64,000 nucleotides of DNA from Bdellovibrionales bacterium (GCA_965217115.1 OZ244239.1:1536001-1600000), one strand, 5' to 3'. Positions 25,133 to 60,060 are shown, counted from the stretch's first letter. Notes: generated by a model from the sequence alone, not told the origin. Numbers and translations are program-made.

Positions 25133-25133
25133 T

Positions 25134-33927: not shown

Positions 33928-34287
33928 ATGAAAAAGACATTTGTGATATTAATTTTATTTGTTAGTAGTATATCTCAAGCTAACCCCTGTACTAATCTCT
34001 TTAAAGACGTCGGTTTTCTTTTCAAGACTAAAAAAGCAGTACGTGGTGTAGCTCAAGCTGGTAGAGAACTCGATATTATACGTGAGAATATTAAAAATTC
34101 AGATAGTATTTCACGCTTAAGATTCTTATCTGAGTATTTGTTGGATACGACTCAGAAAAGCTCTAGCGATCTGTCTCGAAGCCTTACTGCTATGGCCGCA
34201 GCCATTGAGTCAGGGATAGACCTGAGAAAGTTAAAAGAGAAATGTCGTGATGGTAATGCCTCAGAACTTTTTAATAAGGCAAAGTAA
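33928..34287 (+). CDS. Small secreted hypothetical protein
   Basis: GGAGG SD; MKKTFVILILFVSSISQA signal peptide. Confidence 0.75.
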   Translation: MKKTFVILILFVSSISQANPCTNLFKDVGFLFKTKKAVRGVAQAGRELDIIRENIKNSDSISRLRFLSEYLLDTTQKSSSDLSRSLTAMAAAIESGIDLRKLKEKCRDGNASELFNKAK

Positions 34288-34407
34288 TGGTTTATTTATT
34301 CGATTCGTTTTCATGTTATGGATAAAATAGGTAGATTCTCTAATAGCCAGGAGTTAAGTGTTGTTTCTTGTGATTTGGGTGATATGTCTCAGCCAACAAA
34401 CAAAACT

Positions 34408-34487
34408 CTAGATAAATGATTAATCCTCAGCCGACGAAGCTGAGAGATGGTGAAAAAAGGCGACCTTGGGGTCGCCTTCACTGAGCT
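34408..34487 (+). repeat. Dispersed 3' element, hairpin part (copy A)
   Basis: CTAGATAAAT..CTCAGC-CGACGAA-GCTGAG..AAGGCGACC-TTGG-GGTCGCCTT. Confidence 0.85.
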
Positions 34488-34523
34488 TGTGTGTAAGGTT
34501 TAGTTAATTAAAAACCTAGTTTT

Positions 34524-34874
34524 TTATTTTTGCGGAGAAGGCTGAAAAGCACATGAGTAATAGTATTCAAGCCCATCTTCTGAAACAAATTCTTTTAGAG
34601 TCACATTAAAAACTATTTTTCCTACACGCTGAACTTCAAAACCAGAATCTTTTTGTTTGGAAACGTAGTAGGTATATCCATAGCCCCGACGGCCACTCCA
34701 TTTAGTGGTAGAGCTTATCCAATTTCCAGGCTTTAAAGATTCGACCATTTCTTTCTGACAAAAACGAGACAGATTCGAAAGGGCGTAATTTGCCTCCTGA
34801 CCTAGAACTTCCACACTACTAGCAAATGCGGAAAAGGGAGAGAGAAGCATGCAACTGATAATAAGATTTTTCAT
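34524..34874 (-). CDS. Small secreted hypothetical protein
   Basis: MKNLIISCMLLSPFSAFA signal peptide; preceded by the shared leader. Confidence 0.8.
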   Translation of the reverse strand: MKNLIISCMLLSPFSAFASSVEVLGQEANYALSNLSRFCQKEMVESLKPGNWISSTTKWSGRRGYGYTYYVSKQKDSGFEVQRVGKIVFNVTLKEFVSEDGLEYYYSCAFQPSPQK

Positions 34875-35026
34875 ATTTTCTTCCTATTTGTTGTATTACT
34901 CATTTGAGTAAGAGTTTTATTATAAGATTCTGCTCATAATATTTAGCGTACCATTTAAGACACAGGGTCGAATTAACAGAATCTCTATTAAGTGTCTATA
35001 ATTTATTGCTAGGAGGGTCATTTTTA
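34875..35026 (-). promoter_or_regulatory. Shared 5' leader module
   Basis: TTACTCATTTGAGTAA palindrome; colinear with 25747-25880 and 41123-41275. Confidence 0.7.
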
Positions 35027-35382
35027 TAGCGTATAGAGTTTAAAATTGTAATAAATTCACTAATCTCCAAATAGCTAAAACATCCTCTTTTCCATATGGG
35101 ACTACTGGCGCAATAGACCGCCTGAACCCAACCCAACTTTTCTCTTTTTCGATGACCAGAATGGTGAGACAATAAGTTCCCCTCAGACTGCAAGTAGTTC
35201 AAATCTATTCTATTGATGGTGTTCTTATCCAGAGCAAAATAGTTAGAGTCTGCCGTAACCAGAAGATTTAAAATACACTTTGCAGGAAAACTATCGGTCA
35301 AATTTTCTTAGTTCTGGTAAGCTAGTTATTTATTTAAACCTATGTTTAAATCTAGGAATATTTTGATCCTTAAATGATCGAG

Positions 35383-36234
35383 TTACATCTCAAACTCTAG
35401 AGGTTTGTCAGGGTTGAACCAACATCTCGGTCGAGCAGACTCAATATGGTTTTTTTTCTGAGAGCACACACCATCTTCAATATTTTGGAAGCTGACCTTT
35501 TCAGAAGGAGGAATCGTACATAACGCCGCTGCGACAATCGTATCAAAACGACACTGTGCCGCAGGGTGAAGAGGATAGGTTTTTTCTGGAGTGAGTTTTG
35601 AAGGAGTGGTTATATTGACGTAGAATCTTACTTTATTAGAAAGAAGGCGTATAGCTTCTGAAAAACTTCTCCCTGCAAAAATAGTCCTTCGACATAAAGC
35701 CACATCTTTTCGCGTTTTCCAATGGGTTTGACACTTTTTTAAAGAAATAGGGATAATATCTTTTAAAAAATAATTTTCCGAATTTTTCTTTACGAAGTCT
35801 TTGACAAATTGAACATTGTTTTCGCCCTTGTAAAAAGTTCGGAAACATTTGGATGCAGCCCAATAGTCTGCTTGCCCCTCTATGGACAGATTCGACCTCA
35901 GAAGAACAAAGTTCCCAAAGAGAGGTCCTCCTCCTGCAAGATGTCCCATCTCATGACAAACCAAGAGTACAAAAGCATCTTCGGTCAAATTTCTACTTCT
36001 AAGCAGACCTCCCGAAATGTACAGATAATATGAATCCCCTTCATCTCTAGCCAGAGCATCTAAAGAATCACTCTTCCAATCTCTTGTAACTCCAAGAGGT
36101 TTTCTCAGGTTATCTCCGTAGAGATTAAGTATTTTAGAGGTGATTGAGTAAAACTTTTCTGCAACTGGATCTTTACATTGCCCTTGAATTGGCAATAGTC
36201 CAAAAAATAAAAAAAATAAAATTGCCTCTTTCAT
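35383..36234 (-). CDS. Secreted HExxH metallopeptidase-like protein
   Basis: VCHEMGHLAGG, EGQADY, HPAAQCRFDT and RPRCWF; paralog of the N-domain of 53952-55562. Confidence 0.8.
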   Translation of the reverse strand: MKEAILFFLFFGLLPIQGQCKDPVAEKFYSITSKILNLYGDNLRKPLGVTRDWKSDSLDALARDEGDSYYLYISGGLLRSRNLTEDAFVLLVCHEMGHLAGGGPLFGNFVLLRSNLSIEGQADYWAASKCFRTFYKGENNVQFVKDFVKKNSENYFLKDIIPISLKKCQTHWKTRKDVALCRRTIFAGRSFSEAIRLLSNKVRFYVNITTPSKLTPEKTYPLHPAAQCRFDTIVAAALCTIPPSEKVSFQNIEDGVCSQKKNHIESARPRCWFNPDKPLEFEM

Positions 36235-36256
36235 GCCCTCTCCTTATTGTAATTGC

Positions 36257-36420
36257 TATTATAGACGACTCCGTCCTCAGCGAGGGAGAAATCAGCCCAT
36301 GATGTAAAATTTCCCGATTTTCAAGGGTGACCTTTAAAAAGCGAGTTTTAATCAGCGCAAAGAAGAAGACTTCTCTGCAGTGGCCTCATCATCTCCTGGC
36401 TTTGTCGGCGAGGGCTTATT
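36257..36420 (-). repeat. Dispersed 3' element, near-full copy (J), overlapping a CDS end
   Basis: Colinear with the reverse complement of 39430-39595. Confidence 0.85.
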
Positions 36421-37026
36421 ATATTGATGTAAGAATATATATATTCTACCGCTAGCATCATAAGCAGCTTCTACGACGTAATGTATAAAATGAGAAAGCT
36501 TTTCGCCATACTCTTCACAACTAGACGATTTTTCACCCATTTTTTCGAACACTTTTAGCGCTATCCCAAATGTGTTTTTAGATAGAATTCCACCTATGTG
36601 AGTAACTTTTTCTCCGACGTCTTTAGAAAGTTTTTCCTGACACTCAAGAGCTTCTTCCGGAGTCAGAGAAAAGCTAAGAGTCGATTTTGCAGTGGCCTCA
36701 TCTTCTAGCTTTGTCGGCGAGGGGTTATATTTATTTAAGAATATATATATTCTACTGCTAGCCCCATAAGCAGCTTCTACGACGTAATTTATAAAAAAAG
36801 AAAGATGTTCGCTATACTCTTCACAACTAGACGATTCTTCCCCCATTTTTTCGACCACTATTAGCGCTTTCTCAAATGTGTTTTTAGAGAGAATTTCACC
36901 TATGTGATTCTTTTTTTCTTTGATTTTTTCAGGAAGTTTTTTCTGACATTCAAGAGATTCTTCCGGAGTCAGAGAAAAGCTAAGAGTCGATGTAAGCATA
37001 ATAGCTATAACTAAAACCTTTTTCAT
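36352..37026 (-). CDS. Secreted protein made of two tandem ~100-aa repeats
   Basis: STLSFSLTPEE..YVVEAAY..PSPTK..EATA occurs twice; signal peptide. Confidence 0.85.
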   Translation of the reverse strand: MKKVLVIAIMLTSTLSFSLTPEESLECQKKLPEKIKEKKNHIGEILSKNTFEKALIVVEKMGEESSSCEEYSEHLSFFINYVVEAAYGASSRIYIFLNKYNPSPTKLEDEATAKSTLSFSLTPEEALECQEKLSKDVGEKVTHIGGILSKNTFGIALKVFEKMGEKSSSCEEYGEKLSHFIHYVVEAAYDASGRIYIFLHQYNKPSPTKPGDDEATAEKSSSLR

Positions 37027-37214
37027 TTCTTTTCTCCTTTATTTGTATAGATGCTTGAAATTCACCTATTTAATTTCTGCTTAGTAACCAAATCGTTTAT
37101 TTATTCGATTCGTTTATACTTCCAGTGCGATTATACATAAATTAGAGAGGAAATACTTGAGAATAGGAGTATAGTGTAATTTTTTCCTACTTTTGAGGGA
37201 CAATCTACGCAAGG

Positions 37215-37473
37215 AAAGGGCGACTATCGAGTCGCCTTTTTCTTTGTGTTCGAGAAAGCTTGCTTTTAAAGGCAACCCCTAAAAACTAAAAAACTTTACA
37301 TCATGGCCTAACTTTCTCCTCGCTGGGGCTAAAATCGGCTATAATCGCTCAGGAATTCAAAACGAATCGAATGAATAAGCCATTCCTCAAAAAATATATT
37401 TTTAAGTAAAAAAAGCCATCTCAGTTACAAATAGCTTCAAGATGGGTTATAAATGGCTCGATACTAAAAATTA
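37215..37473 (+). repeat. ~260-bp direct repeat of 39464-39723 (element copy B plus a duplicated 3' end of the App1-like gene)
   Basis: Shared GGCGAC..GTCGCC hairpin through TCAGTTACAAATAG..GGCTCGATA. Confidence 0.9.
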
Positions 37474-37478
37474 AGTCA

Positions 37479-38354
37479 TTAGCCTCTTGACCAGAATATT
37501 AAATACCTCATTAGTTCGCTTTTGAAGTATTCTAGGGCTTCGTTGTTCCTCGTATCCATAAAACACAAGTCAATATAGTGTTTGTCAAAATGGTTGTTCT
37601 TTATGTTCGGATGGTGAAAAGCGGTTAATTTACCTTTTAGAACACCATCTCGGGCAACTTTATGTGGGAGCAGCCCTATACCCATAGATTCTTCTGTTAA
37701 GGCCTTAACAGTTTCAATATTGTCACAACAGATAGATTCAATAAAATGAAACTTTTCAAGAGAGTTTGCGACGTCATTGAGAGAGAAATCAAAATATATA
37801 AGCCTATTTTGAAAACCAGAGTGTTTCAACGGTGATACATAAAGACCAAAAAAGTCTTCGTACACTGATTCATGTTTTATTCCCCGAAAAGAAGAAGCAT
37901 TAACAATGAGACCCAATTGAATTTGACTGTTTTTAAGGTCTTTGACGAGATCACGACTTTTCCCTGTCTTAATGAAAATTTTAAGATCTGGTTGAATTTG
38001 CTTAAAAAACCTTAAAAATTCGGGAAAAAAATAACGAGCAATACTATCATAAGCTCCAATCGTTATCTTTTCGTTGAAAAGACAGCTTTGAGCTTTCATT
38101 TTTAGTTCCAACTCCGAAGCGGTTTTTAAGGTAATTTGAGCATATTGATAGAGCATTTCTCCTTCTCTGGTCATTTGAATACCACTTTTTGATCTTACAA
38201 GAAGCCTGGAGCCAATAGTTTCTTCAAGCTGAAGAATCACCTTTGACATCTGCGCTTGACTCAACAGAGCCTTTAGAGCCCCTCCCTTAATAGTCCCAGC
38301 CTCAATAACCTTAGAGTAATAATCTAATTTATGCAGTTGATCTTTTAGTCTCAT
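37479..38354 (-). CDS. LysR-family transcriptional regulator
   Basis: LSQAQMSKVILQLEETIGSRLLVRSKSGIQMTREG HTH region; 291 aa. Confidence 0.92.
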   Translation of the reverse strand: MRLKDQLHKLDYYSKVIEAGTIKGGALKALLSQAQMSKVILQLEETIGSRLLVRSKSGIQMTREGEMLYQYAQITLKTASELELKMKAQSCLFNEKITIGAYDSIARYFFPEFLRFFKQIQPDLKIFIKTGKSRDLVKDLKNSQIQLGLIVNASSFRGIKHESVYEDFFGLYVSPLKHSGFQNRLIYFDFSLNDVANSLEKFHFIESICCDNIETVKALTEESMGIGLLPHKVARDGVLKGKLTAFHHPNIKNNHFDKHYIDLCFMDTRNNEALEYFKSELMRYLIFWSRG

Positions 38355-38503
38355 TTTCCACCTATTCCAAAAACGAATACACCTATATACATTTAATGCT
38401 TTATTATTGCAAGAAAATACTGCACAACAATCAAATTGAGTCTCTGGAAAAATAGGAACTGGAGGCTTATTAAGGAAACCTAAACTAAAACGAGGAGAAG
38501 AAA

Positions 38504-39400
38504 ATGTTTAAGTATTTAGCAATTATTTTTTTTAGCGTATTACAGGCTCAAGCTGGAACAGTTAATCTAACACTTGAGTTATCAGGCCTTGGTTCAATGC
38601 AAGGACAGCATTATGAAGGGTGGAATATTGTAGCCGGTCAAGCAAAGTCCACAGGGAGATTTTCTATTAATGACAACGGGAACATCTATAGTGTTGATTC
38701 AATGGGCAGAGAACTCAGAAGACTAGGTACAAATAACACTGCAACTTTTATAGTCGATAGTTCTCAGAAGAGTTCAACTCTCTTTGTTTTAACAATTGAA
38801 CCTAATGGTGATGACGACACAGGGCCGAGCAGTGTTCATGTTATGGGTGGAGAGTACTCTTCTGGTGCTGCTACTCTAACGACGTCCCATAAATCAAGTC
38901 TTAAAGTTGACTTCACTTCTGTAACAGGAAGCTTCATTATGGCAGCTCCAACAGGAGGAGAATTTAATCAAGGAGTATGGTTTGTTGATCCTAGTGAGGG
39001 AATTGGGTCTCTAAGTATCCCAACTCTTGCAACTGGATGGGCTTATGAAGGATGGATTGTGAATACCAGTAACGGAAAGAAAATTTCTACGGGGATATTT
39101 TTTGATGCTAATGGAGCTGATTCCGATGCTGCGGGCTATTTAGCTGGCCCTTTGAAACTTTCTTTTCCATCAGTCCCTGGACAAGATATTGTGGAAAGCC
39201 CTGTAACACTCGATGATGGTAAGCATGCCATTGTCGTCTCGGTCGAGCCTTATCCAGATTTTGATCCAGCACCTTATGACATTAAGATTTTTAAGTCTGA
39301 TATTTCTCCAACGGATCCTGGAATGACTCCACTTGAGCTTAATAGAATTAATGTCGTTCCTACAGGCTTGGCGCATATACGAAAGACAATGGAAATTTAA
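38504..39400 (+). CDS. Secreted protein with duplicated YEGW/STG.F/(T,S)(I,V)EP domain (RskA-like 'anti-sigma' family)
   Basis: HYEGW..STGRF..LTIEP and AYEGW..STGIF..VSVEP; signal peptide; divergent from the LysR gene. Confidence 0.65.
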   Translation: MFKYLAIIFFSVLQAQAGTVNLTLELSGLGSMQGQHYEGWNIVAGQAKSTGRFSINDNGNIYSVDSMGRELRRLGTNNTATFIVDSSQKSSTLFVLTIEPNGDDDTGPSSVHVMGGEYSSGAATLTTSHKSSLKVDFTSVTGSFIMAAPTGGEFNQGVWFVDPSEGIGSLSIPTLATGWAYEGWIVNTSNGKKISTGIFFDANGADSDAAGYLAGPLKLSFPSVPGQDIVESPVTLDDGKHAIVVSVEPYPDFDPAPYDIKIFKSDISPTDPGMTPLELNRINVVPTGLAHIRKTMEI

Positions 39401-39418
39401 TGATAAGAAAAACGCCCA

Positions 39419-39633
39419 CTAGGTAAATAGTCATCCCTCAGCCGACAAGGCTAGGAGATGATGAAAAGGCGACCATCGAGTCGCCTTTTTCTTTGGGTTC
39501 GAGAAAGCTTGCTTTTAAAGATAAGCCCTAAAAACTAGAAAACTTTACATCATGGCCTAATTTTTCCCTCGCTGGGACTGAAATCGCCTATAATCGCTCA
39601 GGAATTCAAAATGAATCGAAGAAATAAACCATT
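39419..39633 (+). repeat. Dispersed 3' element, most complete copy (C)
   Basis: CTAGGTAAAT..CAGCCGACAAGGCTAGGAGA..hairpin..CTATAATCGCTCAGGAATTC..AATAAACCATT. Confidence 0.9.
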
Positions 39634-39671
39634 CCTAAAAAAACACCACGCAGACTAAAAAAACCTCTATC

Positions 39672-40544
39672 TCAGTTACAAATAGTTTCAAGATGGGTTA
39701 TAAATGGCTCGATATTAAAATTTAAAATGTTATTGGTCTTATCCTTAAAAGGCCACTTGTTTCCATAGCAGTTCATATATGGATGAAAGAAGTAACCTCC
39801 ATACTCTTCAGAAGAGGTTTCCAAAAACACATCTTTAATTATTTTTAAAATAAACTCCTCAGAACAGACATCTAAATTATATATAGCTAAGGCTATGCAG
39901 ATCTCAACTGGTGTAACAAAATTTACTTGATGAGGCATGAGGTTATCATCAAAGGCTACCGGGTATGTTGTCCTAATAAATTGTAGAATAGTTATTCTAT
40001 GACCATACTCTTGATAAATTTTATCATAAACGTAACTATCCATTTCCCCATTATCACCAATAAGGATTAATCTTTTGGGACTCTTCTTTTCAATGAGCTT
40101 TCGAATTGTTTTTAACTTATGAGTATTCTTACTTTCTGTTTCTCTAAAATATATCTCTCCTTTTGGAAAGTTATTATATTGTATAAAATCTTTATGATGG
40201 CCTTCCATCAGCCATTTAGGTGCATTTGTTAAGTAGACTATTTCTATATTATTATGATGTTGATGATTAACAAGTTGGTCATAAAGTCCGTTCATCCCAG
40301 ATATAAGATTCTCTTCTCTGTGAAAATACCGAATTTTTCCTATAAGGCTTCGAACATGGGAAGCCTTAATTGTATCATCAATATCTGAAATCAGAAGCGT
40401 CTTGTCAATGTCATTAGAATCGGCACGGGAATACACGCTACAAAATAAAATAAAGATCAATGCAAGTTTTCTGCATATTTTACTTGAGTCATAAGTGTTA
40501 ATGTTTTTCATTTGCTTTATCCAATTCGCGAATAACACGACCAA
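39672..40544 (-). CDS. App1-like (DUF2183) HAD phosphatase
   Basis: ISDIDDTIK, YLTNAP, NFPKG and LIGDNGEMD; start probably at MKNIN. Confidence 0.8.
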   Translation of the reverse strand: MVVLFANWIKQMKNINTYDSSKICRKLALIFILFCSVYSRADSNDIDKTLLISDIDDTIKASHVRSLIGKIRYFHREENLISGMNGLYDQLVNHQHHNNIEIVYLTNAPKWLMEGHHKDFIQYNNFPKGEIYFRETESKNTHKLKTIRKLIEKKSPKRLILIGDNGEMDSYVYDKIYQEYGHRITILQFIRTTYPVAFDDNLMPHQVNFVTPVEICIALAIYNLDVCSEEFILKIIKDVFLETSSEEYGGYFFHPYMNCYGNKWPFKDKTNNILNFNIEPFITHLETICN

Positions 40545-40777
40545 CTATTTTTTTTGCATCTCTCAATCTTCTAACAGATTTTTTAAAATACTGAGGACAG
40601 TCTTTAAGATAAGGCTTCCAATCAGGGTCACAAAATGTTTTTAACTGAGTTACAGAACATTTATAATTAATCAAATTAAAATAAATCTCACTTGCATTCG
40701 TCAATTTTCCTACAGCGGCATCTACAGCATATAAATGACCGCTCAATACTCCAACACTTAGGCAGAATTCTTTTTAC

Positions 40778-41122
40778 TTAAAAACAGCCCCAGCATGCTA
40801 GGAAGGAGGTCGTTTTGTAAGTGAAATCAGAAAAAAAACGATTGTTTGTATATTCTCCAGTTGTAATCTGAGGGCAATCATAGCCCTCATTGCGGACATT
40901 TCTCTTGCAGTTTCTGGGGCTAGAATATGCACCCAGATAGTAACATTGTCCCTTTGGTTTTTTTGCCTCATATGTATAAACCGTTCCATGGGAGAAAAGA
41001 CGGTCATTTTGAGATACTATAGTATAGCTATCTTCAACCTCGTATCGACAAGACTCTGCAAAAGATAATTTTGATAATGAAAGTAGTAAGGTTATTCCAA
41101 ATATAACTTTTCTGATAAACAT
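40778..41122 (-). CDS. Small secreted Cys-containing protein
   Basis: AGGAGG SD; signal peptide; six Cys; preceded by the shared leader. Confidence 0.8.
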   Translation of the reverse strand: MFIRKVIFGITLLLSLSKLSFAESCRYEVEDSYTIVSQNDRLFSHGTVYTYEAKKPKGQCYYLGAYSSPRNCKRNVRNEGYDCPQITTGEYTNNRFFSDFTYKTTSFLACWGCF

Positions 41123-41275
41123 AAATTCCTCCTTAATTTTTATTATTCACTTGAGTAATAATTTTATCGTGAGATTTTCTCACAATTTTATTGCGTTCTA
41201 TTTAAAATACATAGTCTAAAATAGCATACTCTATCATAAAGGGTTATAATTTTTTGCTAGGAGGGTAATTTTTTC
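41123..41275 (-). promoter_or_regulatory. Shared 5' leader module
   Basis: TATTATTCACTTGAGTAATA, GTGAGA-TTT-TCTCAC, TTATTGCGTTCTATTTAAAATAC and TATAATTTTTTGCTAGGAGGGT. Confidence 0.7.
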
Positions 41276-41320
41276 ATCCCCCCCCCTCCACCCGAATTGA
41301 CCTAAAGCCGAATATACTGC

Positions 41321-42841
41321 TTATAGAAGGATTTTTTTGTCAAAACTGATATTATCTATAAATGTTTGGTCATGGGAGACAACAATTAAGGCTCCTTCAA
41401 AACTATTGAGGACTCTTTCTAAAAACTCAATAGTTTCAATATCAAGGTTATTTGTTATCTCGTCAAAAAGAATAAACTGGCATACTGGTTCTTGAAATAA
41501 AATTTTTGCAAGACTTAATCTCACCTTTTCTCCTTCACTTAGATTAGAGATGGTTTTGTAGATATCATTTTTTTTAAATAAAAATCCAGCCAGAATATTC
41601 CTTAATTCAGATTGACTCAAAGACGAAGTTTGCTGCATGTTTTCCAAGACTGTTTTTTTGTAACTTAGATGAGAAAAGTCTTGATCTACCCAGCCCTGTG
41701 TGGCCGAGCCCATAGATATCTCTCCTAGTGTTGTTGCATTTAAGATAGGTTTCCCAGCAATAACTCTTAAAAGAGTAGACTTACCAGCCCCATTATTTCC
41801 ACAAAGAACAATTTTTTGTCTTCCGAAAAAACTGAGGTTCAAGTTTTCTTTCCAAAGAAGGCTTTGCTTTTCATCAAATTGAATATTTAAGTTTTCTATT
41901 TGAAATAACTTCTTCGAATTAGGTAGCTTAACCTCTGGCAGAGGAAAACCAATTGATCTAACTTCTTTGACAGTATTTTGAAGTTTGACATACCTCTCAA
42001 TCTTTTCTTTAATACCTCTTTCAGTGGAAGAGCTTATTTTTTTCGCTGTAGTTTCAGCTATTTCTTTCTTTCCTTTAATTTCTACTTTACTAGCCCCTTT
42101 TCTTTTTGCTCTAGCATTTCCGCTAGCTCTCTTTCTTTCTAAAGATTCCTTTGTTTTCTTTGACTCAGACAACACCTTTTTTTTATCTTGTTTTGCTTGC
42201 TTAACTTGTTGAGTTAAGCGGCAGATCTCTTTTGATCGCTCTTGATAATAGAAGTCCCAAGATCCCCCATATATTTGAATTCCAGTTGATGAGAGTTCGA
42301 TAATATTTTGAACTTCTTGGAGGATTTTTCTGTCATGTGAAACAATTAGGCAACCTGCATCCATGTTCTTTATGATATTGGCTAATATTTTTTGTGATCG
42401 TTGGTCTAAATGATTTGTTGGTTCATCTAAAATTACAAATTGAGTGGATGATAAAAAACTATCTATTAATCTTAGACGTGCCCATTCACCTCCACTGAGC
42501 TGAGTACAACAGTGTTCAAGGTCAATTCCATCCAAGAGGTTCTGGTACTCAGGCCTTTCGTAGAAGACTTTATTGTCCCAAAATCTAGAAGCATAATTAT
42601 ACACTGGAACCTTAGGTGGAGACTGACTTTGTTCAAAGAGAGAGTATTGATTTTTTCTTTGTATAACCCCTTCAGTCGGAACTAAATTTCCATGTATAAG
42701 GTTGATAAGAGTTGTCTTGCCAAGACCATTAGCTCCGACAAGGCCATATTTCTCATTTGAATTGATTTTAAAGTGGAGATTTGAAAAAATGGAATCTCCA
42801 TTAGGCCATGAAAAGGCCACGCCATTAAACACAATAGACAT
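41321..42841 (-). CDS. ABC-F family ATPase
   Basis: Two nucleotide-binding domains (GANGLGKT/LSGGE/LDEPTNHLD; GNNGAGKS/LSEGE/FDEITNNLD), charged linker, no TM segments. Confidence 0.92.
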   Translation of the reverse strand: MSIVFNGVAFSWPNGDSIFSNLHFKINSNEKYGLVGANGLGKTTLINLIHGNLVPTEGVIQRKNQYSLFEQSQSPPKVPVYNYASRFWDNKVFYERPEYQNLLDGIDLEHCCTQLSGGEWARLRLIDSFLSSTQFVILDEPTNHLDQRSQKILANIIKNMDAGCLIVSHDRKILQEVQNIIELSSTGIQIYGGSWDFYYQERSKEICRLTQQVKQAKQDKKKVLSESKKTKESLERKRASGNARAKRKGASKVEIKGKKEIAETTAKKISSSTERGIKEKIERYVKLQNTVKEVRSIGFPLPEVKLPNSKKLFQIENLNIQFDEKQSLLWKENLNLSFFGRQKIVLCGNNGAGKSTLLRVIAGKPILNATTLGEISMGSATQGWVDQDFSHLSYKKTVLENMQQTSSLSQSELRNILAGFLFKKNDIYKTISNLSEGEKVRLSLAKILFQEPVCQFILFDEITNNLDIETIEFLERVLNSFEGALIVVSHDQTFIDNISFDKKILL

Positions 42842-42843
42842 AA

Positions 42844-42908
42844 CTACCTCGAATGTCGAAGAAAAAAAGAAATTCTAAAATAGGGTGAGGTAATTATAGT
42901 TTTGTCAT
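42844..42908 (-). promoter_or_regulatory. Putative translational attenuator: uORF MTKL* (42908-42894) with an anti-SD
   Basis: TTACCTC right after the uORF stop is complementary to the SD GAGGTAG. Confidence 0.6.
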
Positions 42909-44341: not shown

Positions 44342-44420
44342 AATTAATGATTTATTTATTCAATTCGTTTACCATTGGGCAAAATAAAAACAGCTATTTT
44401 TAGATTAAAGGAAGGAATGT

Positions 44421-45110: not shown

Positions 45111-45150
45111 ACTAGGCTAGGCTAGGCTCTAAAAGCGAGCTTGTTCATTT

Positions 45151-45256
45151 AAACTAGGAGATTGCGACGAGGTCACTGTAAAGTGACCTTCTTCTTTGAG
45201 TTCGGAAAACATCGCTTTTAAAATCAACTTCTGAAAATCGAAAAAAAATCACATGA
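45151..45256 (+). repeat. Dispersed 3' element (copy I)
   Basis: CTAGGAGAT..AGGTCACT-GTAA-AGTGACCT..TCTTTGAGTTCG..GCTTTTAAA. Confidence 0.8.
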
Positions 45257-45263
45257 CAAGAAG

Positions 45264-49091: not shown

Positions 49092-49124
49092 AAAAAAATG
49101 GCTAGTCATCGACTGGCCATTTTT
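49092..49124. terminator. Bidirectional terminator
   Basis: AAAAATGGCTAGTC-ATC-GACTGGCCATTTTT. Confidence 0.75.
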
Positions 49125-49183
49125 TAATTATCAAGTTTTCATTAAATTTTCACTGTCTCTCTGAGTAGATGTTGGTCATCTAC

Positions 49184-49606
49184 CTAGTGACTGAACTCTG
49201 ATTTTAAATAGTAAGTAATAGGTTGAGGGACTTTTATCGACAAAGAATCACATCTCTGGAATTGGACAGTTATTCTTAGGCTCAAAGTCCCCTTTTCCAT
49301 ACCGCTATGCTGTCTTACATTAAGTATACAATTTAATTTACCATCAGAAACATCAATAGTTAATTCCCTCGCATCTCCATGCTGGTAAAGGCCCGCATAG
49401 TAAGGATTTATAAAAGACTCTGGAATTCCAATATCCACCTGAGATTCCTCTAAATTTAGAGAAGGATTGGAATGATTGACCTTTTCAACAACAATGTTCT
49501 TAAGAGTTGTATCACTAAGAATTACCGGCTGTATCACCCCCGCTATTGACGATGTCGCCGCTAAAAAAATTAATCCAAATAAAATATTTTTCATAAATGA
49601 CCTCAC
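49184..49606 (-). CDS. Small secreted hypothetical protein
   Basis: MKNILFGLIFLAATSSIA signal peptide; start probably at MKN. Confidence 0.75.
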   Translation of the reverse strand: MRSFMKNILFGLIFLAATSSIAGVIQPVILSDTTLKNIVVEKVNHSNPSLNLEESQVDIGIPESFINPYYAGLYQHGDARELTIDVSDGKLNCILNVRQHSGMEKGTLSLRITVQFQRCDSLSIKVPQPITYYLKSEFSH

Positions 49607-51647: not shown

Positions 51648-51658
51648 AGGGGGGGGCA

Positions 51659-52558: not shown

Positions 52559-52560
52559 AC

Positions 52561-53358
52561 ATGGAAGTATTGACGTTCTTTCTCCCTCCTTTTTTTATGT
52601 GTCTTATTTTAGTGGGTATCCATTGTTATATGGGACTACATGTATTGAAAAGAGGAGTTATATTTGTTGATCTAAGCTTGGCACAAGTGGCAGGGCTTGG
52701 ATCGACCGTGGCACTTCTTTTTGAAATTGAACATCATTCAACAGGTAGTTACTTTATTTCTTTAGGACATACATTTGCAGTTGCGGCTCTATTTTCATGG
52801 GCCAGAAGGGTTGAGAGTAAAATTTCTCAAGAAATATTAATTGGTATCGTTTATGCGCTGGCCTCAGCACTTGTGATCTTAGTTGTTAATAACCTCTCTC
52901 ACGGTGCTGAGCATATTAAAGAAATATTAGTTGGAAGAATTCTATGGGTGTCGTGGAATGATGTGATAAAAATTGGGGTCATATATTCTATTGTCGCAGG
53001 AGTTCATTATTATTTTAGGAAACAAATCATTGCAGTGAGCTTTGGAGGCAACGTTTCCAATAGAGCATTCTGGGATTTTATTTTCTTTGCTCTTTTTGGA
53101 ATAGTCATAACTTCCTCCGTAGGTGTTGCTGGAATATTGTTAGTTTTTTCATTTTTAATAGTTCCAGCATTAATAAGCACATTTTTTAGAAAAGGAATAA
53201 AAGCTCAACTTGTATTTGGCTGGGCTTTTGGCTTTTTCATTTGTATCCTCGGTATGATCCTTAGCTACAAATTGGATTTGCCAGCAGGAGCTATCCTCGT
53301 TGTTTGTTTTACGACTGTTCCAATCTTAATGCTTCCCTTCTTGAACAGAATTAAATGA
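52561..53358 (+). CDS. Zn/Mn ABC permease (ZnuB-like)
   Basis: GLHVLKRGVIFVDLSLAQ, GILLVFSFLIVPA and SYKLDLPAG. Confidence 0.9.
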   Translation: MEVLTFFLPPFFMCLILVGIHCYMGLHVLKRGVIFVDLSLAQVAGLGSTVALLFEIEHHSTGSYFISLGHTFAVAALFSWARRVESKISQEILIGIVYALASALVILVVNNLSHGAEHIKEILVGRILWVSWNDVIKIGVIYSIVAGVHYYFRKQIIAVSFGGNVSNRAFWDFIFFALFGIVITSSVGVAGILLVFSFLIVPALISTFFRKGIKAQLVFGWAFGFFICILGMILSYKLDLPAGAILVVCFTTVPILMLPFLNRIK

Positions 53359-53481
53359 TCCAAGACCACTTAGATTTAGCTCCCTAGCATAGATTGTCAG
53401 TTTGGAGTTTTAAAAGGGTTCTTTGTGATAAATAGTGGCGCTGTTCCCAAGAGATCCATTGACTCATTGATTGAATAGGGC

Positions 53482-53635
53482 ATTTTTTTCTAGAGTATCT
53501 CCCAAAAGAATCCAGTTCTTTTCGGCGAGTTTGGCTTGGCGACTTCCATTGCATTTTTCTGCAATGGAAGGTGACAAACGAATGTTTGAGCAAGAAAAGG
53601 GCTGGATTCTTTTGGGAGAGACTCTAGAAAAAAAA
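53482..53635. repeat. Long imperfect inverted repeat (foldback)
   Basis: TTTTTTTCTAGAGT.TCTCCCAAAAGAATCCAG outer arms plus an inner CTTCCATTGCA/TGCAATGGAAG stem. Confidence 0.88.
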
Positions 53636-53951
53636 CGGATCATCAGAAAAAAACTCACTCCACTATTGTTTGTCATAAAGAATCTAAAATTAACCCCCTA
53701 TAATCGTGCTGTTAGAACGTCTTGCGTCAAATGAGCAAATACGGCTGAGATCGAATTTACTCACCATAGAGCCGTTTATTATAAGGGGAAATCTTAAGTG
53801 TCATTAGGGAATCTAATCTTCCCCCTAGGACTTAGGGCTGGTTAAAAAAAAGTGCAAAATATTATTTACCCCTGTCCTTATTTTTTGTGATTGAATTATT
53901 TCAATAGAGAGATTTAGGAATAATCTATTTTAAATACCAACGGAGGGTAGA

Positions 53952-55562
53952 ATGAGTTTTAAATTATCAGTATTAATCATGTTCCTGCTAAATAGTTCAT
54001 TAACTTGGGCAACGATATTGCCGCCCAATGATTTGCACTTGCAAGATAATCTATTCACAGAAGAGTCAAATATAACGGAGGAGATGTTCAATCAGATTAT
54101 TACCCAAGCTGAGGATATCTATGCTCCGATCATTGAGAGCCACGGCGCGACTTTAAAATTCAACCGTCTTTGGGAGAATTCAACAGTTAATGCCAGTGCC
54201 AGCCAGGCTAATGGTACATGGATCGTTAATATGTACGGTGGTTTTGCTCGACGTCCAGAAGTCACTCCAGATGGTTTTGCTCTGGTTGTTTGTCATGAAC
54301 TGGGTCATCACTTAGGGGGGTATCCATTCTACCAGAGAGGCTCTGGTAATTGGGCCGCCAATGAGGGACAGTCTGATTACTTTGCCACGCAGTCCTGTGC
54401 CCATAAGCTTTGGAGCGGTGAGGAAGATAAAAACCGTCTCTCCCGTGAAACGGTTGACCCAGCAGCCAAAGAGGGTTGTGACTCTGCTTGGAGCACTGAA
54501 AAAGCTCAGAACCTCTGTTATCGAACGGCGATGGGTGGTCACTCGTTAGCGACTTTGTTAGGTTCTTTAAGAAACACAACGGTGGATTTTGCCACTCCCA
54601 GTGAAGCGGAAGTTCTCAAGACAAGTGATTCACATCCTCAAGCACAATGTCGCTTGGATACCTATTTCCATGGAGCACTTTGTAGTGTTGACTTTGATTC
54701 AAATATTATCCCAGGTCGTAGACACAGTGATGGTCAACGATCAGAAGCGGCCGAAGGAGTTGCTGTTGAGAATTCCTGTGCAAGGGAGGTGTTTTTTCCT
54801 GCAGGTAACCGTCCTCTGTGTTGGTATAAACCTTTACGGTCAGTTCAGATGAATTTAACGGATGCTATTTGGGAGCAAATATCTGGTAATGGTGATGATG
54901 CGCTTCAACCTGGTGAGACGTTTGGTGTGAAATCCTCACTGGTTAATGGAACGGGACGGTCATTTGAAGATGCTAAAGTTCAGCTGGAAACAGGAAATGA
55001 TTCTGTGATCATTGAAAAAGGAACCGTTCAGTTTCCCGATTCTCTTCCTGGCACGACAGTGGAGCAAGAGGAACCTTTTGTGATTAAAATAAGAGAGAAC
55101 GCTGCTTGTGGACAATTTATTGATCTGGACTTGAGTATGATTATCTCAGGAGCCGTCGCTCATAAACAGAGCACACGTAAGAGATTAGGCCAAGTTGTAG
55201 GATCTGTTCCCTATAAAGAAGTAACAAGTGTTTCCATTCCTGATAATAACTCAACTGGGATTTCACAGCTGATTTCTGTTGCTGGGTCGACAGGGGTTGT
55301 CTCTGTTAAATTTAAGGCGAATATAACTCATCCCTACTCTGGTGATTTAATCATTCGGTTGATTTCTCCAGATGGAAGAGAAATGTTTCTTCGTGAGAAG
55401 CAGGGTGGAAGTGAGGACAATGTTATTCTAGACGAAGAGTTGGCCATAGATGCTGGGGATATCCAAGGAGATTGGACATTAAAAATAAGAGATGCTGGTC
55501 CTCGTGATATCGGAACTCTCGATAGCTGGTCTCTTGAGTTCACCAAAGTTAGCTGCGAATAA
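53952..55562 (+). CDS. Secreted HExxH metallopeptidase-like protein with a C-terminal proprotein-convertase P domain
   Basis: VCHELGHHLGG and NEGQSDY; IPDNN, ITHPYSGDL..L.SPDG, GDWTLKIRD and GTLDSWSLEF. Confidence 0.88.
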   Translation: MSFKLSVLIMFLLNSSLTWATILPPNDLHLQDNLFTEESNITEEMFNQIITQAEDIYAPIIESHGATLKFNRLWENSTVNASASQANGTWIVNMYGGFARRPEVTPDGFALVVCHELGHHLGGYPFYQRGSGNWAANEGQSDYFATQSCAHKLWSGEEDKNRLSRETVDPAAKEGCDSAWSTEKAQNLCYRTAMGGHSLATLLGSLRNTTVDFATPSEAEVLKTSDSHPQAQCRLDTYFHGALCSVDFDSNIIPGRRHSDGQRSEAAEGVAVENSCAREVFFPAGNRPLCWYKPLRSVQMNLTDAIWEQISGNGDDALQPGETFGVKSSLVNGTGRSFEDAKVQLETGNDSVIIEKGTVQFPDSLPGTTVEQEEPFVIKIRENAACGQFIDLDLSMIISGAVAHKQSTRKRLGQVVGSVPYKEVTSVSIPDNNSTGISQLISVAGSTGVVSVKFKANITHPYSGDLIIRLISPDGREMFLREKQGGSEDNVILDEELAIDAGDIQGDWTLKIRDAGPRDIGTLDSWSLEFTKVSCE

Positions 55563-55648
55563 AAACAGCTCCATAGTATAGAGAGAAATATTTTACTATT
55601 AATAAGAAGAGAGGGGAGAGAACTCCCCTTTTTTTATTTTAATGACTG

Positions 55649-55715
55649 CCCTGCTGGGTCTGAAATCGCCTATAATCGCTCAGGAATTCAAAACGAATCG
55701 AATAAATAAACCATT
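55649..55715 (+). repeat. Dispersed element, terminal part (copy D)
   Basis: CTGAAATCGCCTATAATCGCTCAGGAATTCAAAACGAATCGAATAAATAAACCATT. Confidence 0.9.
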
Positions 55716-55792
55716 AAGTTTAATCGTTTTGATTTTAGACAGTTGAAGTTAATTCCCATCAGTCACTTACAAAATACATGGGTCCAAATAAC

Positions 55793-55927
55793 TTAAGTCA
55801 GGTTGTAAGTTTTTCCAGTTTGCTTTTAAAAGGGGAGTCTTCTGAGCTTTAAAGAAAAAGACCACTTGTGGGAGAGTGGCCTTGTCAAAATCTCCTAGCT
55901 TTGTCGGCTGGGGATCAATTATTTAGT
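55793..55927 (-). repeat. Dispersed 3' element (copy E)
   Basis: Reverse complement ATCCCCAGCCGACAAAGCTAGGAGA..AAGGCCACT..AGTGGTCTT. Confidence 0.85.
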
Positions 55928-55947
55928 TAGTGACAGAAATTAACCAA

Positions 55948-56325
55948 TTAAGACTGATGTTTTAATTTGCAAAAAAATAGATTCTCATTTTTGCTGTATT
56001 CGAATGTCCTGATATTATTTAATTTGTGTCCACCTATTGCTTTCTCTAGTGCAACTTTAACAGTAACATAAAAACGACACGCTTTATATTCTCCTTCAGT
56101 GACATCAGGCTGTAAGGTCATTGAAAGAACCTTAACATCCCCTTCTGTTATAGCCTGATGAGTTAGCAATATAGATCGTAGGTTATCAGACTGAGCAAGG
56201 ACCTTAGCAAAGTCTTCTTTTGCAATAGAAGTTGAAGCAGGGTTCTTTATTTTTTTATTTTTTACTGTACTTGAAAATGATGTCAAAAAGAAAAAAAATG
56301 CTAAAAAAAAGGGTAAAAACCTCAT
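55948..56325 (-). CDS. Small secreted hypothetical protein
   Basis: GGAGG SD; hydrophobic signal peptide. Confidence 0.75.
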   Translation of the reverse strand: MRFLPFFLAFFFFLTSFSSTVKNKKIKNPASTSIAKEDFAKVLAQSDNLRSILLTHQAITEGDVKVLSMTLQPDVTEGEYKACRFYVTVKVALEKAIGGHKLNNIRTFEYSKNENLFFCKLKHQS

Positions 56326-56486
56326 TTAACAGCCTCCATAGTTGTTTTGCTGTATTTCTATCGGAGAGTTAACTTCTATTAATGAGTAAACAATAAAACC
56401 CTGGCTTAATGTCTAGGGTATGTGTAAGCACCAATTTGCTCTTAAAAGGGGTGTCTTCTGAGCTTTTTATAGAGGTTAGGTGGATT

Positions 56487-57629
56487 TTAGAGTGATTCCA
56501 CAGGCTCTGTCAGAAGACTGTAAATATCTAAATAACCAGATGCCGTGTATTTCTCTAATTTCCCACTGCGGACAGCTGTTTTCATCAGGTGTTTTCGCAC
56601 TTGATGGGGAGTTAAATCAGGATACTTAAGAAAGAGGAGGGCTGCTGCTGCAGACACTAAAGGAGTTGAATAAGAGGTTCCAGAAGCCACAGTGTAAGTT
56701 CCCTCTTGAGACCTAATCATAATAGGTACCCCCTCTCTCCACCGTCCCGAACTTTTCAGAGAACAAGCCAAACTCAAGATATCTTTGCCTGGAGCAAGAA
56801 TGTCCACTGTCTTCTTTCCATAATGACTAAAAGAAGCCAAATCTCCATATTTATCAATCGCTCCAACAGAGACAATATTGTCCAGATCAAAGTTTGCTGG
56901 GTATATCATAAACTCATCATTGTTGTGATTCGTCTCCGAAGAAAGACTATTGCCAGCCGCAGTGACAACAAGGACTCCTGCTTCTCCAGCCTCTTTAATT
57001 GCTTTCTTAAGATAGGGAAAAAATACAGGTCCTCCCGAAGAGAGGTTTATAACCTTAGCCCCCATTTTCACAGCATATTTAATAGCAGGGACCAGATTTT
57101 TTTCATAATTGTCCATTGTAAAAAGCACATTTCCCACTTTAAGGGGCATGACTTTTATCTTACCTGCACCAACTCCATCAATTCCCAAATCATTGTGGGA
57201 GGCCGCAATTAAGCCAGTAACAATAGTTCCATGGGTGAGATGTTCGCCGAAGAGCCTAGAAAAAGTTCCATCCATAGGGTCTGCATCTTGAAAAGCAAAG
57301 TCGTAACCACGAATATCATCAACAAAACCATTGCCATCGTCATCGATACCTTCAACTCCATCCCTCTCTACCTCATTAATCCACATATTATCCCTTAAAT
57401 CCTCGTGGAGATAATCAGCCCCCGTATCTAAAACAGCAACAATCACCTCTCCTGGCAGGCGCTCCAATAATCCCTCTTCCCAAACTCGAGTAATATTAAT
57501 ATCAGGCCCTTCAGAGTTCTTCACAGCCCACTGTACAAAATTTTCAGGTTTTACCAGAATTGTATATCCAAAAACAGAAGATAGCCCTATTTGGAAGGTG
57601 ATAATAATTAATAGCCACAGTTTCATCAT
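56487..57629 (-). CDS. Subtilisin-like S8 serine protease
   Basis: VAVLDTG, HGT, AAGN and SGTSYSTP catalytic motifs. Confidence 0.93.
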   Translation of the reverse strand: MMKLWLLIIITFQIGLSSVFGYTILVKPENFVQWAVKNSEGPDINITRVWEEGLLERLPGEVIVAVLDTGADYLHEDLRDNMWINEVERDGVEGIDDDGNGFVDDIRGYDFAFQDADPMDGTFSRLFGEHLTHGTIVTGLIAASHNDLGIDGVGAGKIKVMPLKVGNVLFTMDNYEKNLVPAIKYAVKMGAKVINLSSGGPVFFPYLKKAIKEAGEAGVLVVTAAGNSLSSETNHNNDEFMIYPANFDLDNIVSVGAIDKYGDLASFSHYGKKTVDILAPGKDILSLACSLKSSGRWREGVPIMIRSQEGTYTVASGTSYSTPLVSAAAALLFLKYPDLTPHQVRKHLMKTAVRSGKLEKYTASGYLDIYSLLTEPVESL

Positions 57630-57817
57630 TAGGTCCCCACATGATTAAATGTTAAAATTCTCAATTCGTTCTCAATTCCCAACCGGGTTATAACCAATGC
57701 CAGACACTCTGGGGAGAAGATTCAGTCCACAATGTAATATTTTTTCAATTATTAGCTATTTATAAGAAAAATTAATCACAAATATTAGTTTAGGCTAGAA
57801 TCAAAACCTGTTACCTG

Positions 57818-57892
57818 GCAGTACCTCGTCATTCTCTCCTGCCTCTCCTGCCTCTCCTGGCCCTCCTGGCTGGGGATGAGTCATTTACCTAG
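57818..57892 (-). repeat. Dispersed 3' element (copy H) with an internal 9-bp expansion
   Basis: Reverse complement CTAGGTAAATGACTCATCCCCAGCC..(GGCAGGAGA)n..GACGAGGTACTGC. Confidence 0.75.
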
Positions 57893-58288
57893 AGGAAGAA
57901 GTACTCAGAGGGTTTTGCCACACTTTTAGGACTTCTATACTTCTATCCTCCAACGGAGACAAAGAATGGGTCTTATTATTATTCAGGATGACTTCTTTCA
58001 AGCGATAGGATGATCTGAATTATTTTCAATATATAAAGAATCTAGCTGAGGCAGTCCTTTTAAGTCCGTCAAGTTATTGTCTGGCAGTTTTAATGAAACA
58101 AGTTGTGTCTTCTCCGGTAATCCAGGTACAGACCCCAAAGGATCAATTGGCTCTGTCAGAATGGATTTAAACGGGTCTTTTGTTGAGTCTTTTTTAAAGA
58201 AAAGGTTATTTTCACCGATAAATTTAGAGAACACTATTTTTGCAAAAGATTCTTTTGTCTTATTGGGAGATAGCTCATGAGATGTCAT
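57885..58288 (-). pseudogene. Leucine-rich-repeat protein remnant
   Basis: LVSLKLPDNNLTDLKGL in one frame, then LKEVILNNNKTHSLSPL and IEVLKVWQNPL in another; stop coincides with the start of element H. Confidence 0.6.
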
Positions 58289-59002
58289 TTTTTATTATTT
58301 GTGATCATTTTTTATCATTTTCTATCATTATTTATCTTTGAAGTTAGCTTTGCTCTTGTCTGTGATTCTTCGCTACCTGAAATTGAAAGGTTAGCAAAGA
58401 ATGTAGAAAATATTTTGTCAGATCCAAATATCCAAAGAATTAATGGTTGTAGTCCAATTGAGCGTAGCGTTTATAACAAGAGTTTATCTCATATTACTTC
58501 CCGAGCAAAAAACATTTTATCTGAAGTAGAAAAAGTTTTAAATTCTACAAACGAGAAGAGTAGATTATATAGTAAAATGCAGAGCATTAAGGAAGTTTTA
58601 GAGTGTATTCCACAAAAAGTTCCAAAAATTAAAATGCATTGTAATAAGGGATGTGAGAATGGTGCCAACATGTATATAAATGAAAGAAGAACAGTTTTTG
58701 TTGGTTTCACTGTGTTTAAAGATGTTTCCGACGATTTATTTATGTGTACAGATACAATAAATCGTCTTAAGGATATCAAAAAGCTTAATCTGGAGTCATC
58801 AATATTCCATGAAATTTCTCACATGTGTGGAACAGTTGATCTTGCCTATGTGAGGGGGGTCGATACCTCAGATTCTTCTAAATGGAAGTTATCCTCAAGA
58901 TCACGAGTATTTGAGTGGCACAGAAATGCATCTCATTACCAATATTGGTATCTTTTTGGATTCTGCACTCCATATAAAGATTGTAAAGCAATAAACTTCT
59001 AG
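58277..59002 (+). CDS. Secreted aspzincin/M35-like metallopeptidase
   Basis: IFHEISHMCGTVD (HExxH plus GTxD) and downstream NA; signal peptide. Confidence 0.7.
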   Translation: MRCHFLLFVIIFYHFLSLFIFEVSFALVCDSSLPEIERLAKNVENILSDPNIQRINGCSPIERSVYNKSLSHITSRAKNILSEVEKVLNSTNEKSRLYSKMQSIKEVLECIPQKVPKIKMHCNKGCENGANMYINERRTVFVGFTVFKDVSDDLFMCTDTINRLKDIKKLNLESSIFHEISHMCGTVDLAYVRGVDTSDSSKWKLSSRSRVFEWHRNASHYQYWYLFGFCTPYKDCKAINF

Positions 59003-59010
59003 ACTCCTGG

Positions 59011-59097
59011 ATTTGCTTTTAAGAGTGATGTTTCTTGAATTAAAAAAAACCTCGGCAGTGGCTTCGTCAGAAATTCCTAGCTTTGTCGGTTGATTGA
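59011..59097 (-). repeat. Dispersed 3' element (copy F)
   Basis: Reverse complement ACCGACAAAGCTAGGAA..GACGAAGCCACTGC..CTTAAAAGCAAA. Confidence 0.75.
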
Positions 59098-59119
59098 GAT
59101 GTACAAAAGTGACAAAAAC

Positions 59120-59143
59120 AAAAGGGCCCCTAGAGGCCCTTTT
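59120..59143. terminator. Bidirectional terminator
   Basis: AAAAGGGCC-CCTAGA-GGCCCTTTT. Confidence 0.75.
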
Positions 59144-59183
59144 GTTCAACAAAAATCTATCGTAGAATTGACTCTACAAAATC

Positions 59184-59660
59184 TTATTTTTGAGCTTCTT
59201 CACAAAGTTTCTGGTCTGCAAAAATCGAAAGGAACAGAGAAGTGCCAAAGATCAAAAATCCTGATCCAAAAGAAATACCAAACTTCCATACATTAGCAAG
59301 ATTAGCTATTCCAGAAACAATCACAGCAGTTCCCGTCGGTTGAGCACACGCGAAGTCAGCTGTCCAGCTTGGCCAGTTTAAATCAAAATCATTTTCTTCC
59401 ATCATTCTATCTTGGTAATCAGAAAACTCTGCGGATGTCATTCCGTTAAGATGAGAGAATTCTTCAGCGACCAATCCAGCATTCTTTGAGTCGTTAGTAG
59501 CTTCAAAATGCTTTTTTAATTCTAAAAGAGTAAAGAGAACCTCTCCCTTTGAGGGTTTAGTATATTGGTAATAGTCATCACCTGCACCATCTGCATACGG
59601 GTTATCTGAATGAGCCTGAAGTCCTAATAAAAAAATACCTACTAATATGATCGTTTTCAT
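59184..59660 (-). CDS. Secreted hypothetical protein with a hydrophobic C-terminal region
   Basis: AAGGAG SD; MKTIILVGIFLLGLQAHS signal peptide. Confidence 0.8.
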   Translation of the reverse strand: MKTIILVGIFLLGLQAHSDNPYADGAGDDYYQYTKPSKGEVLFTLLELKKHFEATNDSKNAGLVAEEFSHLNGMTSAEFSDYQDRMMEENDFDLNWPSWTADFACAQPTGTAVIVSGIANLANVWKFGISFGSGFLIFGTSLFLSIFADQKLCEEAQK

Positions 59661-60060
59661 GCGTGTCTCCTTGTTCTATTGTTTGATTGTAAGCTTTACC
59701 TATAAAAGTTGTTGATGAGCACATCATTATAGCTCAATGCGTTATCAGAAAGCAATAGATCTTCTTTCTTTGGAAATATTTACAAATTCCACCGTCAATG
59801 AATAAAGAAAAGAGGCTACAAGGAAGAGTTCCTCTGTTATTGACTCGATTTGTACAGAGAAAAACCTACAATACGAGATGATTCCCTTCTCCCTAGGAGT
59901 GCAGAAATTGACTATAATCGCCCAAGAATTTAGAACAGAGAACGAGAAACAGGCCATTGCTTAAAGGAATAGGAAGGTTATTATGAAAAAAGCTATATTG
60001 AGGGGTTATGTTAGAAATTAACTTTCTTAAAATCGTTGAATTAATAAAAAAGAATTAATA

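Follow-up and report, generated by a model that had tools for sequence, protein, structure and literature searches.

A repeated terminator- and promoter-like linker between secreted-protein genes of a Bdellovibrionales chromosome, with a layout resembling the PeSLs of T4-like phages

The closest described counterparts of the element reported here are the PeSLs (promoter-early stem-loops) of T4-like phages, cassettes that place a stem-loop terminator and a promoter between ORFans and form circles by recombination, with the question of a dedicated enzyme left open (Arbiol et al., 2010; PMC2839356); this work was later extended (Comeau et al., 2014; PMC4122927). We describe a repeated intergenic linker in a 64,000-nt stretch (the window; positions 1,536,001-1,600,000) of the closed 2.17-Mb genome of a Bdellovibrionales bacterium (39.6% G+C; G000, with other G numbers denoting relatives within the order). 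The repeat is made of two functional halves rather than a single folded RNA, a terminator-like half A and a promoter-like half B, and there is in our judgement about an even chance that it joins terminator and promoter in the manner of a PeSL and that recombination has spread and reshuffled it along with its cargo.

The linker works like a PeSL, yet it is not a PeSL member, because it shows no kinship, has no −35 element and is not phage-borne. Both are repeated intergenic units of stem-loop terminator and promoter between co-oriented open reading frames (ORFs), a likeness that here is one of sequence and position only, and both flank ORFans of variable regions, form insulated units and have been proposed as exchange points between unrelated genes. 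In contrast to PeSLs, the linker is chromosomal, lies in many islets and has mostly secreted cargo. It is 216 nt long, with an extra hairpin, an upstream TTACA site and no consensus −35, whereas the PeSL promoter is strong and sigma-70-like, with −35 and −10 elements. Sequence kinship to phage records is limited to a generic 29-nt terminator stem, and circles and breakpoints are demonstrated for PeSLs. In the literature consulted, mainly openly accessible, no such linker is described for a bacterial chromosome or for this bacterial group.

Other systems share single traits with the linker. Integron arrays consist of unrelated genes, each with an attC site near its stop that has a constant first motif and a variable middle, and their cargo is common to several lineages. 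[quoted passage not shown] The upstream homology box of the Borrelia erp genes places one promoter, leader and signal-peptide front before unrelated exported proteins. GTAG- and CGTC-tagged REPs, which are associated with RAYT transposases, bear a tag of four bases where their hairpin begins to fold, at its foot, and lie just past coding regions (PMC3733652).

Half A reads, in order, CTAG, a loose hairpin 1, the GC stem of hairpin 2 and a T-run. The stem and T-run are flagged by a terminator scan and form an intrinsic terminator by pattern, so half A is predicted to terminate transcription. A first-pass annotation of the window had proposed that hairpin 2 keeps pairing while its sequence changes, and this holds: 89.8% of the cells in its stem are paired, with double changes in four of nine pairs. 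Hairpin 1, described there with a conserved loop, is present but looser (69.8% of cells paired), lacks the loop in a subtype and is absent from the consensus fold. Half B carries TTACA and TATAAT followed by the end motif AATAAACCATT, the motif that forms the end after TATAAT being AAACCATT, and the distance between TTACA and TATAAT is almost free of indels in 25 aligned B-halves. Half B is predicted to be an active, probably activator-dependent promoter. Central to the layout, and overlooked by the first-pass annotation, is that the 3′ half is a promoter-like module pointing towards the next gene's start. A sigma-28 reading of the motif GCCGAYAA was rejected on account of its spacing and of the lack of any flagellin match in the complete genome, and the literature consulted held no paper on the motif.

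The position of each half relative to genes is opposite. Separate models of the halves gave 35 A and 29 B matches; the 29 A matches with an intact start were used for counting positions, leaving out six. Of these 29, 18 begin no more than 40 nt from a stop on the same strand (null 5.1%, p 1e-16), which extends genome-wide the earlier remark that the element follows same-strand genes, and 15 of the 29 B matches end no more than 70 nt from a start on the same strand (null 12.6%, p 4e-7). With A near stops and B near the next starts, the element fills the space from one gene's stop to the following gene's leader. Using simple rules for ORFs and signal peptides made for this analysis, neighbours have signal-peptide-like starts in 18 of 22 cases for A and 15 of 19 for B, the share among 1920 ORFs being 31%. 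B precedes and A follows each of five genes. The majority of flanking genes lack a Pfam family and most are unrelated secreted ORFans; a similar signal peptide occurs in 19 genes, with homologous mature parts in one pair only. The stop codon of ORF 36352-37026 is supplied by the copy at 36354-36438. The first-pass annotation had credited another copy, H, with supplying a stop codon; if that copy is the one at 55793 on the minus strand, as we assume, it does not do so, the TAA at 55948-55950 being situated about 12 nt ahead of it.

At E ≤ 0.05 an iterated profile finds 54 matches in the genome, of which 13 fall inside the window and 41 outside it, and the same models give none in the reversed genome. 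The repeat is thus not specific to this island. The matches outside the window are clustered, and several adjoin tRNA or tmRNA genes; the core regions of the window (1-22 kb and 60-64 kb) are free of copies, as the first-pass annotation had held. Three intact two-ended copies measure 216-217 nt. Both ends are sharp in column counts, in agreement with the sharp end seen before: the right end has T95, T95 and then 33% consensus (21 copies), and the left end has C62 N38 C86 T83 A86 G79, with preceding flank columns at 28-59% (29 copies). The proposed unit of about 200 bp is approached in the window by three copies only (39417, 36440 and the degenerate 57894), the rest being A-halves or B-halves, and every position listed earlier was found again as a copy, piece or end, those at 56435 and 44346 by eye and not as profile matches. 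Halves alone are about as frequent as halves joined; they start or stop at scattered points through the middle with no single site, and most copies are 45-75% alike per segment.

It is proposed that the linker serves as terminator for the preceding gene and as promoter and leader start for the following one, so that linkers between co-oriented genes would insulate every small secreted-protein gene as an expression unit of its own. Since linkers recur around unrelated genes, host recombination between copies, either RecA-type or through short homology, could exchange whole units, and would delete, duplicate, reorder or import them with expression intact. A crossover anywhere within the linker would leave a working terminator and promoter, no dedicated enzyme would be required, and lone halves would persist where a single job suffices. 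Sister modules and hybrids have the mosaic appearance expected of such exchange: an A4 start is joined to B at genome position 596218, an A1 start to an A4-type terminator at 1627967, A3 to a B end through a common CTCAGGA at 918599, and A to a sister promoter, B′, at 1718852 and 776733.

A leader composed of AAACCA, a 7-bp hairpin and a ribosome site likewise begins with the right-end motif; one pattern finds it ten times in the genome. This leader precedes four paralogues of 174-179 aa at window 24.5-31.4 kb, where the promoter block differs. Their family comprises secreted proteins of 174-182 aa encoded at window 24497-31371 (four genes), at 428-430 kb and at 753.5 kb of the genome, and between its members lies a second terminator-promoter block, which also ends in the AAACCATT-hairpin leader. 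The two arms of the hairpin change together, giving three variants, and its centre is variable; because of this, a 5′ RNA hairpin is preferred for TTACTCA-NN-TGAGTAA over a protein operator or a serine-recombinase core. In having a common front end before unrelated exported proteins the linkers recall the Borrelia erp box, from which they differ by adding a 3′ module and fused terminator-promoter junctions.

Beyond this genome, a sequence-model search of 151 genomes of the order, with 14 candidates scored in each, gave strong matches in only two genomes, which belong to genus g46 of another family: G093, with one full copy (E 5e-28), and G077, with five matches. The remaining three g46 genomes have weak matches only, eight other genomes gave weak partial matches (E 1e-4 to 9e-4), and the single same-family genome searched gave none. 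The g46 copies retain both ends and both A subtypes. Two linker-adjacent genes are the closest of the 37 best protein matches between G000 and the fetched g46 loci, at 77.5% and 74.7%, the next being a protein at 69.8% that we take to be RecA-like. The DNA of the two shared cargo genes is 83-85% alike, and a linker start follows each in both genomes. A further repeat of about 110 nt, with about 20 copies in G077, lies upstream of both (L092 2754-2880). In G093, locus L088 3539-7050 holds stacked islets at a tRNA-Leu, with two decayed tRNA-end copies, each followed by a 70-nt repeat, and a linker begins immediately after one of these decayed copies. G317, of a third genus, carries a tandem pair of B′ plus leader at the rpoD-tRNA-Met site that it has in common with our window; one stands before a homologue of the window paralogues (37%, E 7e-34) and the other before an unrelated gene. 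Blastn of the 39415-39641 copy against 40 relatives had returned one weak 32-nt terminator match, and the profile later found copies in a genus outside those 40. Exact-motif scans gave 2 genome-contig and 16 metagenome-contig matches, none of the 18 extending beyond the motif; four motif or protein scans of viral contigs gave no match, plasmids gave no match to the linker, and the A-start motif in G123 and G167 was at control level.

The opposite gene-relative positions of the halves, the paired stem, the fixed spacing, the sharp ends, the mosaic sisters and the cross-family cargo support a linker reshuffled by recombination. Several results weigh against it. Half B lacks a consensus −35 and a sigma-70 scan makes no call there, and in three of 29 cases the B end lies within 70 nt of the stop of a convergent gene; among these is the best-kept copy at 39417, which has no gene to drive. 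A PHI-type test on 11 long copies gave no significant recombination (p 0.09, 0.48 and 0.67), and most copies, 45-75% alike per segment, would be poor RecA substrates today. Only one empty site is clear: G093 and G151 lack a 2-kb islet that G077 has, and its breaks lie elsewhere than at linker ends. Contigs of four runs from one sample, which drop rare forms, show no joint at a linker over 36150-56140; a loose contig end at 44541 belongs to another locus, and contigs of three runs continue at window 38327 and 43595 with 255 or more letters absent from G000, from a strain variant or another organism. The weak point is that homologous exchange leaves unexplained how new genes first gain a CACTAG module within about 30 nt of their stop. 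This stop-proximal gain, together with end motifs common to unrelated middles, keeps alive both a site-specific cassette and an element that has lost its mover.

A site-specific cassette system that has been orphaned, an integron analogue whose recombinase is absent from this genome or brought by a visiting element and uses a short CA-containing core, is in our view doubtful. Gene cassettes would then run from a TT-leader to a stop-proximal CA, and linkers from CTAG to AAACCA. As in integrons, unrelated genes stand in arrays with a stop-proximal site of constant first motif and variable middle, and cargo occurs across lineages: the CTAG motif opens five module types with differing middles near stops (37 regex matches compared with 1.7 in shuffles), and at 592.9-598 kb, next to a tRNA, stands an array of five genes in which the first four are each followed by a module. 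CA directly precedes CTAG at 18 of 39 sites (5% background, p 2e-13), but is absent at the other 21. Linkers of 36, 69, 82, 83, 164 and 214-215 nt from CTAG share an AAA(C/T)CATT ending, and both end motifs are found at 15 of 39 sites compared with 73 of 624 control windows (12%), a pattern picked post hoc in which at least two matches are spurious. The constant length of the three complete copies and the retention of both ends in another family also fit a defined cassette, yet AAACCATT simply starts a leader that is used behind other promoters too, and, unlike attC sites, every site here has a terminator and a promoter-like part of its own. The attC cores (RYYYAAC ... GTTRRRY) are absent on both strands of all six window copies tested, as the first-pass annotation had held. 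Three PF00589 tyrosine recombinases in the genome appear, by eye and neighbourhood, to be XerC, XerD and the integrase of an integrative and conjugative element (ICE). Resolvase has one match, a truncated relic, although in this single case a decayed A-half near the tmRNA gene lies directly against it. Of the cassette-type site proposed earlier, the architecture thus stands, with its stop link, arrays of unrelated genes and cargo moving between families, while a dedicated site lacks an attC core, a fitting recombinase, and a clean empty site or excision joint. Among further candidates, likeness to dif or pdif sites is at chance level, only one site with at least 16 of 22 arm matches to a dif candidate lying in a linker copy; that candidate is at G000:C1 184747-184774, near the turn of GC skew. 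An integrative element with an integrase and type IV secretion-like genes occupies G000:C1 743313-763000, with lone B-halves on either side at 736.9 and 768.1 kb.

A mobile element that is non-autonomous and has no inverted repeats, with HUH- or IS110-type ends and a lost mover, is unlikely as we see it. It would insert as a unit and be retained at sites where neighbouring genes could by chance make use of its hairpin and its outward TATAAT. Like a MITE, the linker is short, non-coding, multi-copy and sharp-ended, its length is constant, and one internal-deletion variant occurs at two loci 90 kb apart among unrelated genes; its patchy spread, strong in two of five g46 genomes and in no other genus among the 151 genomes, is what such an element might leave, and a second large repeat family is present in the genome. 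Unlike MITEs, it has strict polarity to genes, and at eight two-ended copies terminal inverted repeats are no better than in shuffles (8 of 8, p 0.24-1.0) and no target-site duplication is seen by eye in 14-nt flanks. Profiles of Y1, TnpB, IS110 (PF02371, controls positive) and DDE_Tnp_1 find nothing in G000, other transposase families not having been searched genome-wide, and a Y2 (IS91/ISCR) profile is silent there and equally so on its control. Y1 is also missing from G077 and G093, and its sole match in G152 has no linker nearby. With REPs the linker shares a four-base tag at a hairpin foot downstream of genes, but its tag is CTAG, its length is 36-217 instead of 20-40 nt, and its orientation is fixed. 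Random insertion and selection fit poorly with stop-proximal starts and co-moving cargo, and sister linkers share their ends and not their middles. Sharp ends, constant length and the twice-found deletion variant therefore keep the earlier suggestion of a mobile element possible, against which inverted repeat, target duplication and mover are missing. A minus-strand reading with ends arranged as in Helitrons or IS605 was rejected since the guide-pairing rule does not hold. A link to a reverse transcriptase (1868366-1869313) was rejected as well, with no copy within 140 kb; this 315-aa enzyme is encoded behind a small helix-turn-helix gene (G000:C1 1868366-1869599), inserted in the ribosomal-protein region beside a restriction-modification cluster. 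That the whole 216 nt is a structured non-coding RNA or 3′-UTR family, as also proposed, is highly improbable. The copy at 39419-39633 folds better than 200 of 200 shuffles (z −3.25) and hairpin 1 is partly paired, but the RNAalifold consensus of 12 long copies keeps hairpin 2 alone, with eight pairs all in the terminator and no structure in half B, and the terminator already lies one third into an element whose halves are about as common apart as together. An Rfam search of the window, which had been recommended, gave two tRNAs and, at gathering score, no match to the repeat.

The linker copies of the window are listed in Table 1. They lie in an accessory region between a tRNA-Met behind rpoD and a methyltransferase gene at 60061, with core genes on both sides (1-22 kb and 60-64 kb). 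The accessory region is lower in G+C, its skew is weak, many of its genes lack a Pfam family, and it gave almost no matches in 383 other genomes of the order (two candidates scored per genome). It also holds an IS3-type transposase remnant (rve, HTH_21) at 26265-26867 and a 510-aa secreted-type protein with a protein-arginine deiminase domain at 32084-33616. A short helix-turn-helix-like relic at 44470-44545 has repeats at G000 1815312 and 1816445, there beside a CTAG-type start. A 306-nt tandem duplication (36419-36991) draws part of half A into the coding sequence of ORF 36352-37026. A recent 2.28-kb duplication, 96% identical, relates window 53449-55725 to G000 12620-14894 and carries the gene of a 536-aa secreted P-domain protein; it is bordered by a long-hairpin repeat on the left and a B end on the right. 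This repeat, at window 53449-53690, belongs to a different and much larger family of about 70 copies, another of which splits an A-half at G000 370998.

Table 1. Linker copies, sister modules and associated features, in window coordinates.
Feature	Position	Strand	Remarks
Left edge of accessory region, tRNA-Met behind rpoD	22174..22250	+	In the relative G317 this tRNA adjoins an array of sister linkers
Leader: AAACCATT, hairpin and ribosome site, one of four	25030..25075	-	Precedes one of the 174-179-aa paralogues at 24.5-31.4 kb; same right-end motif, different promoter block
Lone right end of B	34286..34313	-	
A-half, start to terminator hairpin	34406..34479	+	121 nt past stop of gene 33859-34287
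Sister module, type A5	34460..34521	-	CTAG 5 nt past stop of gene 34524-34874; shares one terminator hairpin with opposite-strand A-half
Near-complete linker	36230..36440	-	A holds stop of ORF 36352-37026; B enters ribosome site of gene 35383-36234
Hairpin-1 piece	36669..36743	-	From 306-nt tandem duplication inside ORF 36352-37026
B-half subtype	37086..37189	-	Faces start of ORF 36352-37026; back to back with 37214 copy; isolated end placed at 37091 by the first-pass annotation
Copy, terminator hairpin to end	37214..37384	+	90% identity to 39417 copy over 181 nt; further 67-nt block downstream in common with it
Complete 217-nt linker: CACTAG, hairpin 1, terminator hairpin and T-run (39463-39490), middle, TTACA, TATAAT, AAACCATT	39417..39633	+	Begins 17 nt past stop of secreted-type gene 38504-39400
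Lone right end of B	44346..44371	-	By eye, about 26 nt, no profile match
A-half, subtype A2, and middle	45122..45261	+	12 nt past stop of gene 44808-45110
Sister module, type A4	49100..49189	-	CTAG includes stop codon of gene 49184-49606
Core-promoter part of B	55642..55715	+	Behind a different terminator; right edge of 2.28-kb duplication
A-half and shortened middle	55791..55936	-	Starts about 12 nt past stop of gene 55948-56325
Middle piece alone, about 40 nt	56430..56470	-	By eye; close to middle of 55936 copy
Degenerate full linker	57639..57894	-	B ends 10 nt before subtilase gene 56487-57629
A-half without start	58997..59093	-	Behind a different terminator; downstream of gene 59184-59660
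B-half at right edge of island	59857..59960	+	About 100 nt before core methyltransferase gene 60061-60633; stub of signal-peptide-like frame between

The shuffling of genes between PeSL-type elements has been described for phages, and the linker extends such logic to a chromosome. The origin and turnover of the many small secreted ORFans of this group are unexplained, and the linker offers a concrete route, in which a gene landing between two linkers would be at once expressed, insulated and exchangeable. A bolder proposal, which we think unlikely to be right, is that predatory-type bacteria possess an unrecognised form of cassette exchange, with secreted-protein genes held between an AAACCA|TT leader and a CA|CTAG site, joined by interchangeable terminator-promoter linkers that an enzyme would splice in, and passed between families. 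If true, this would be an integron analogue with on and off signals at each junction, and if the shared end motifs were sites cut by an enzyme, they would define a new cassette system with bearing on how genes become cassettes.

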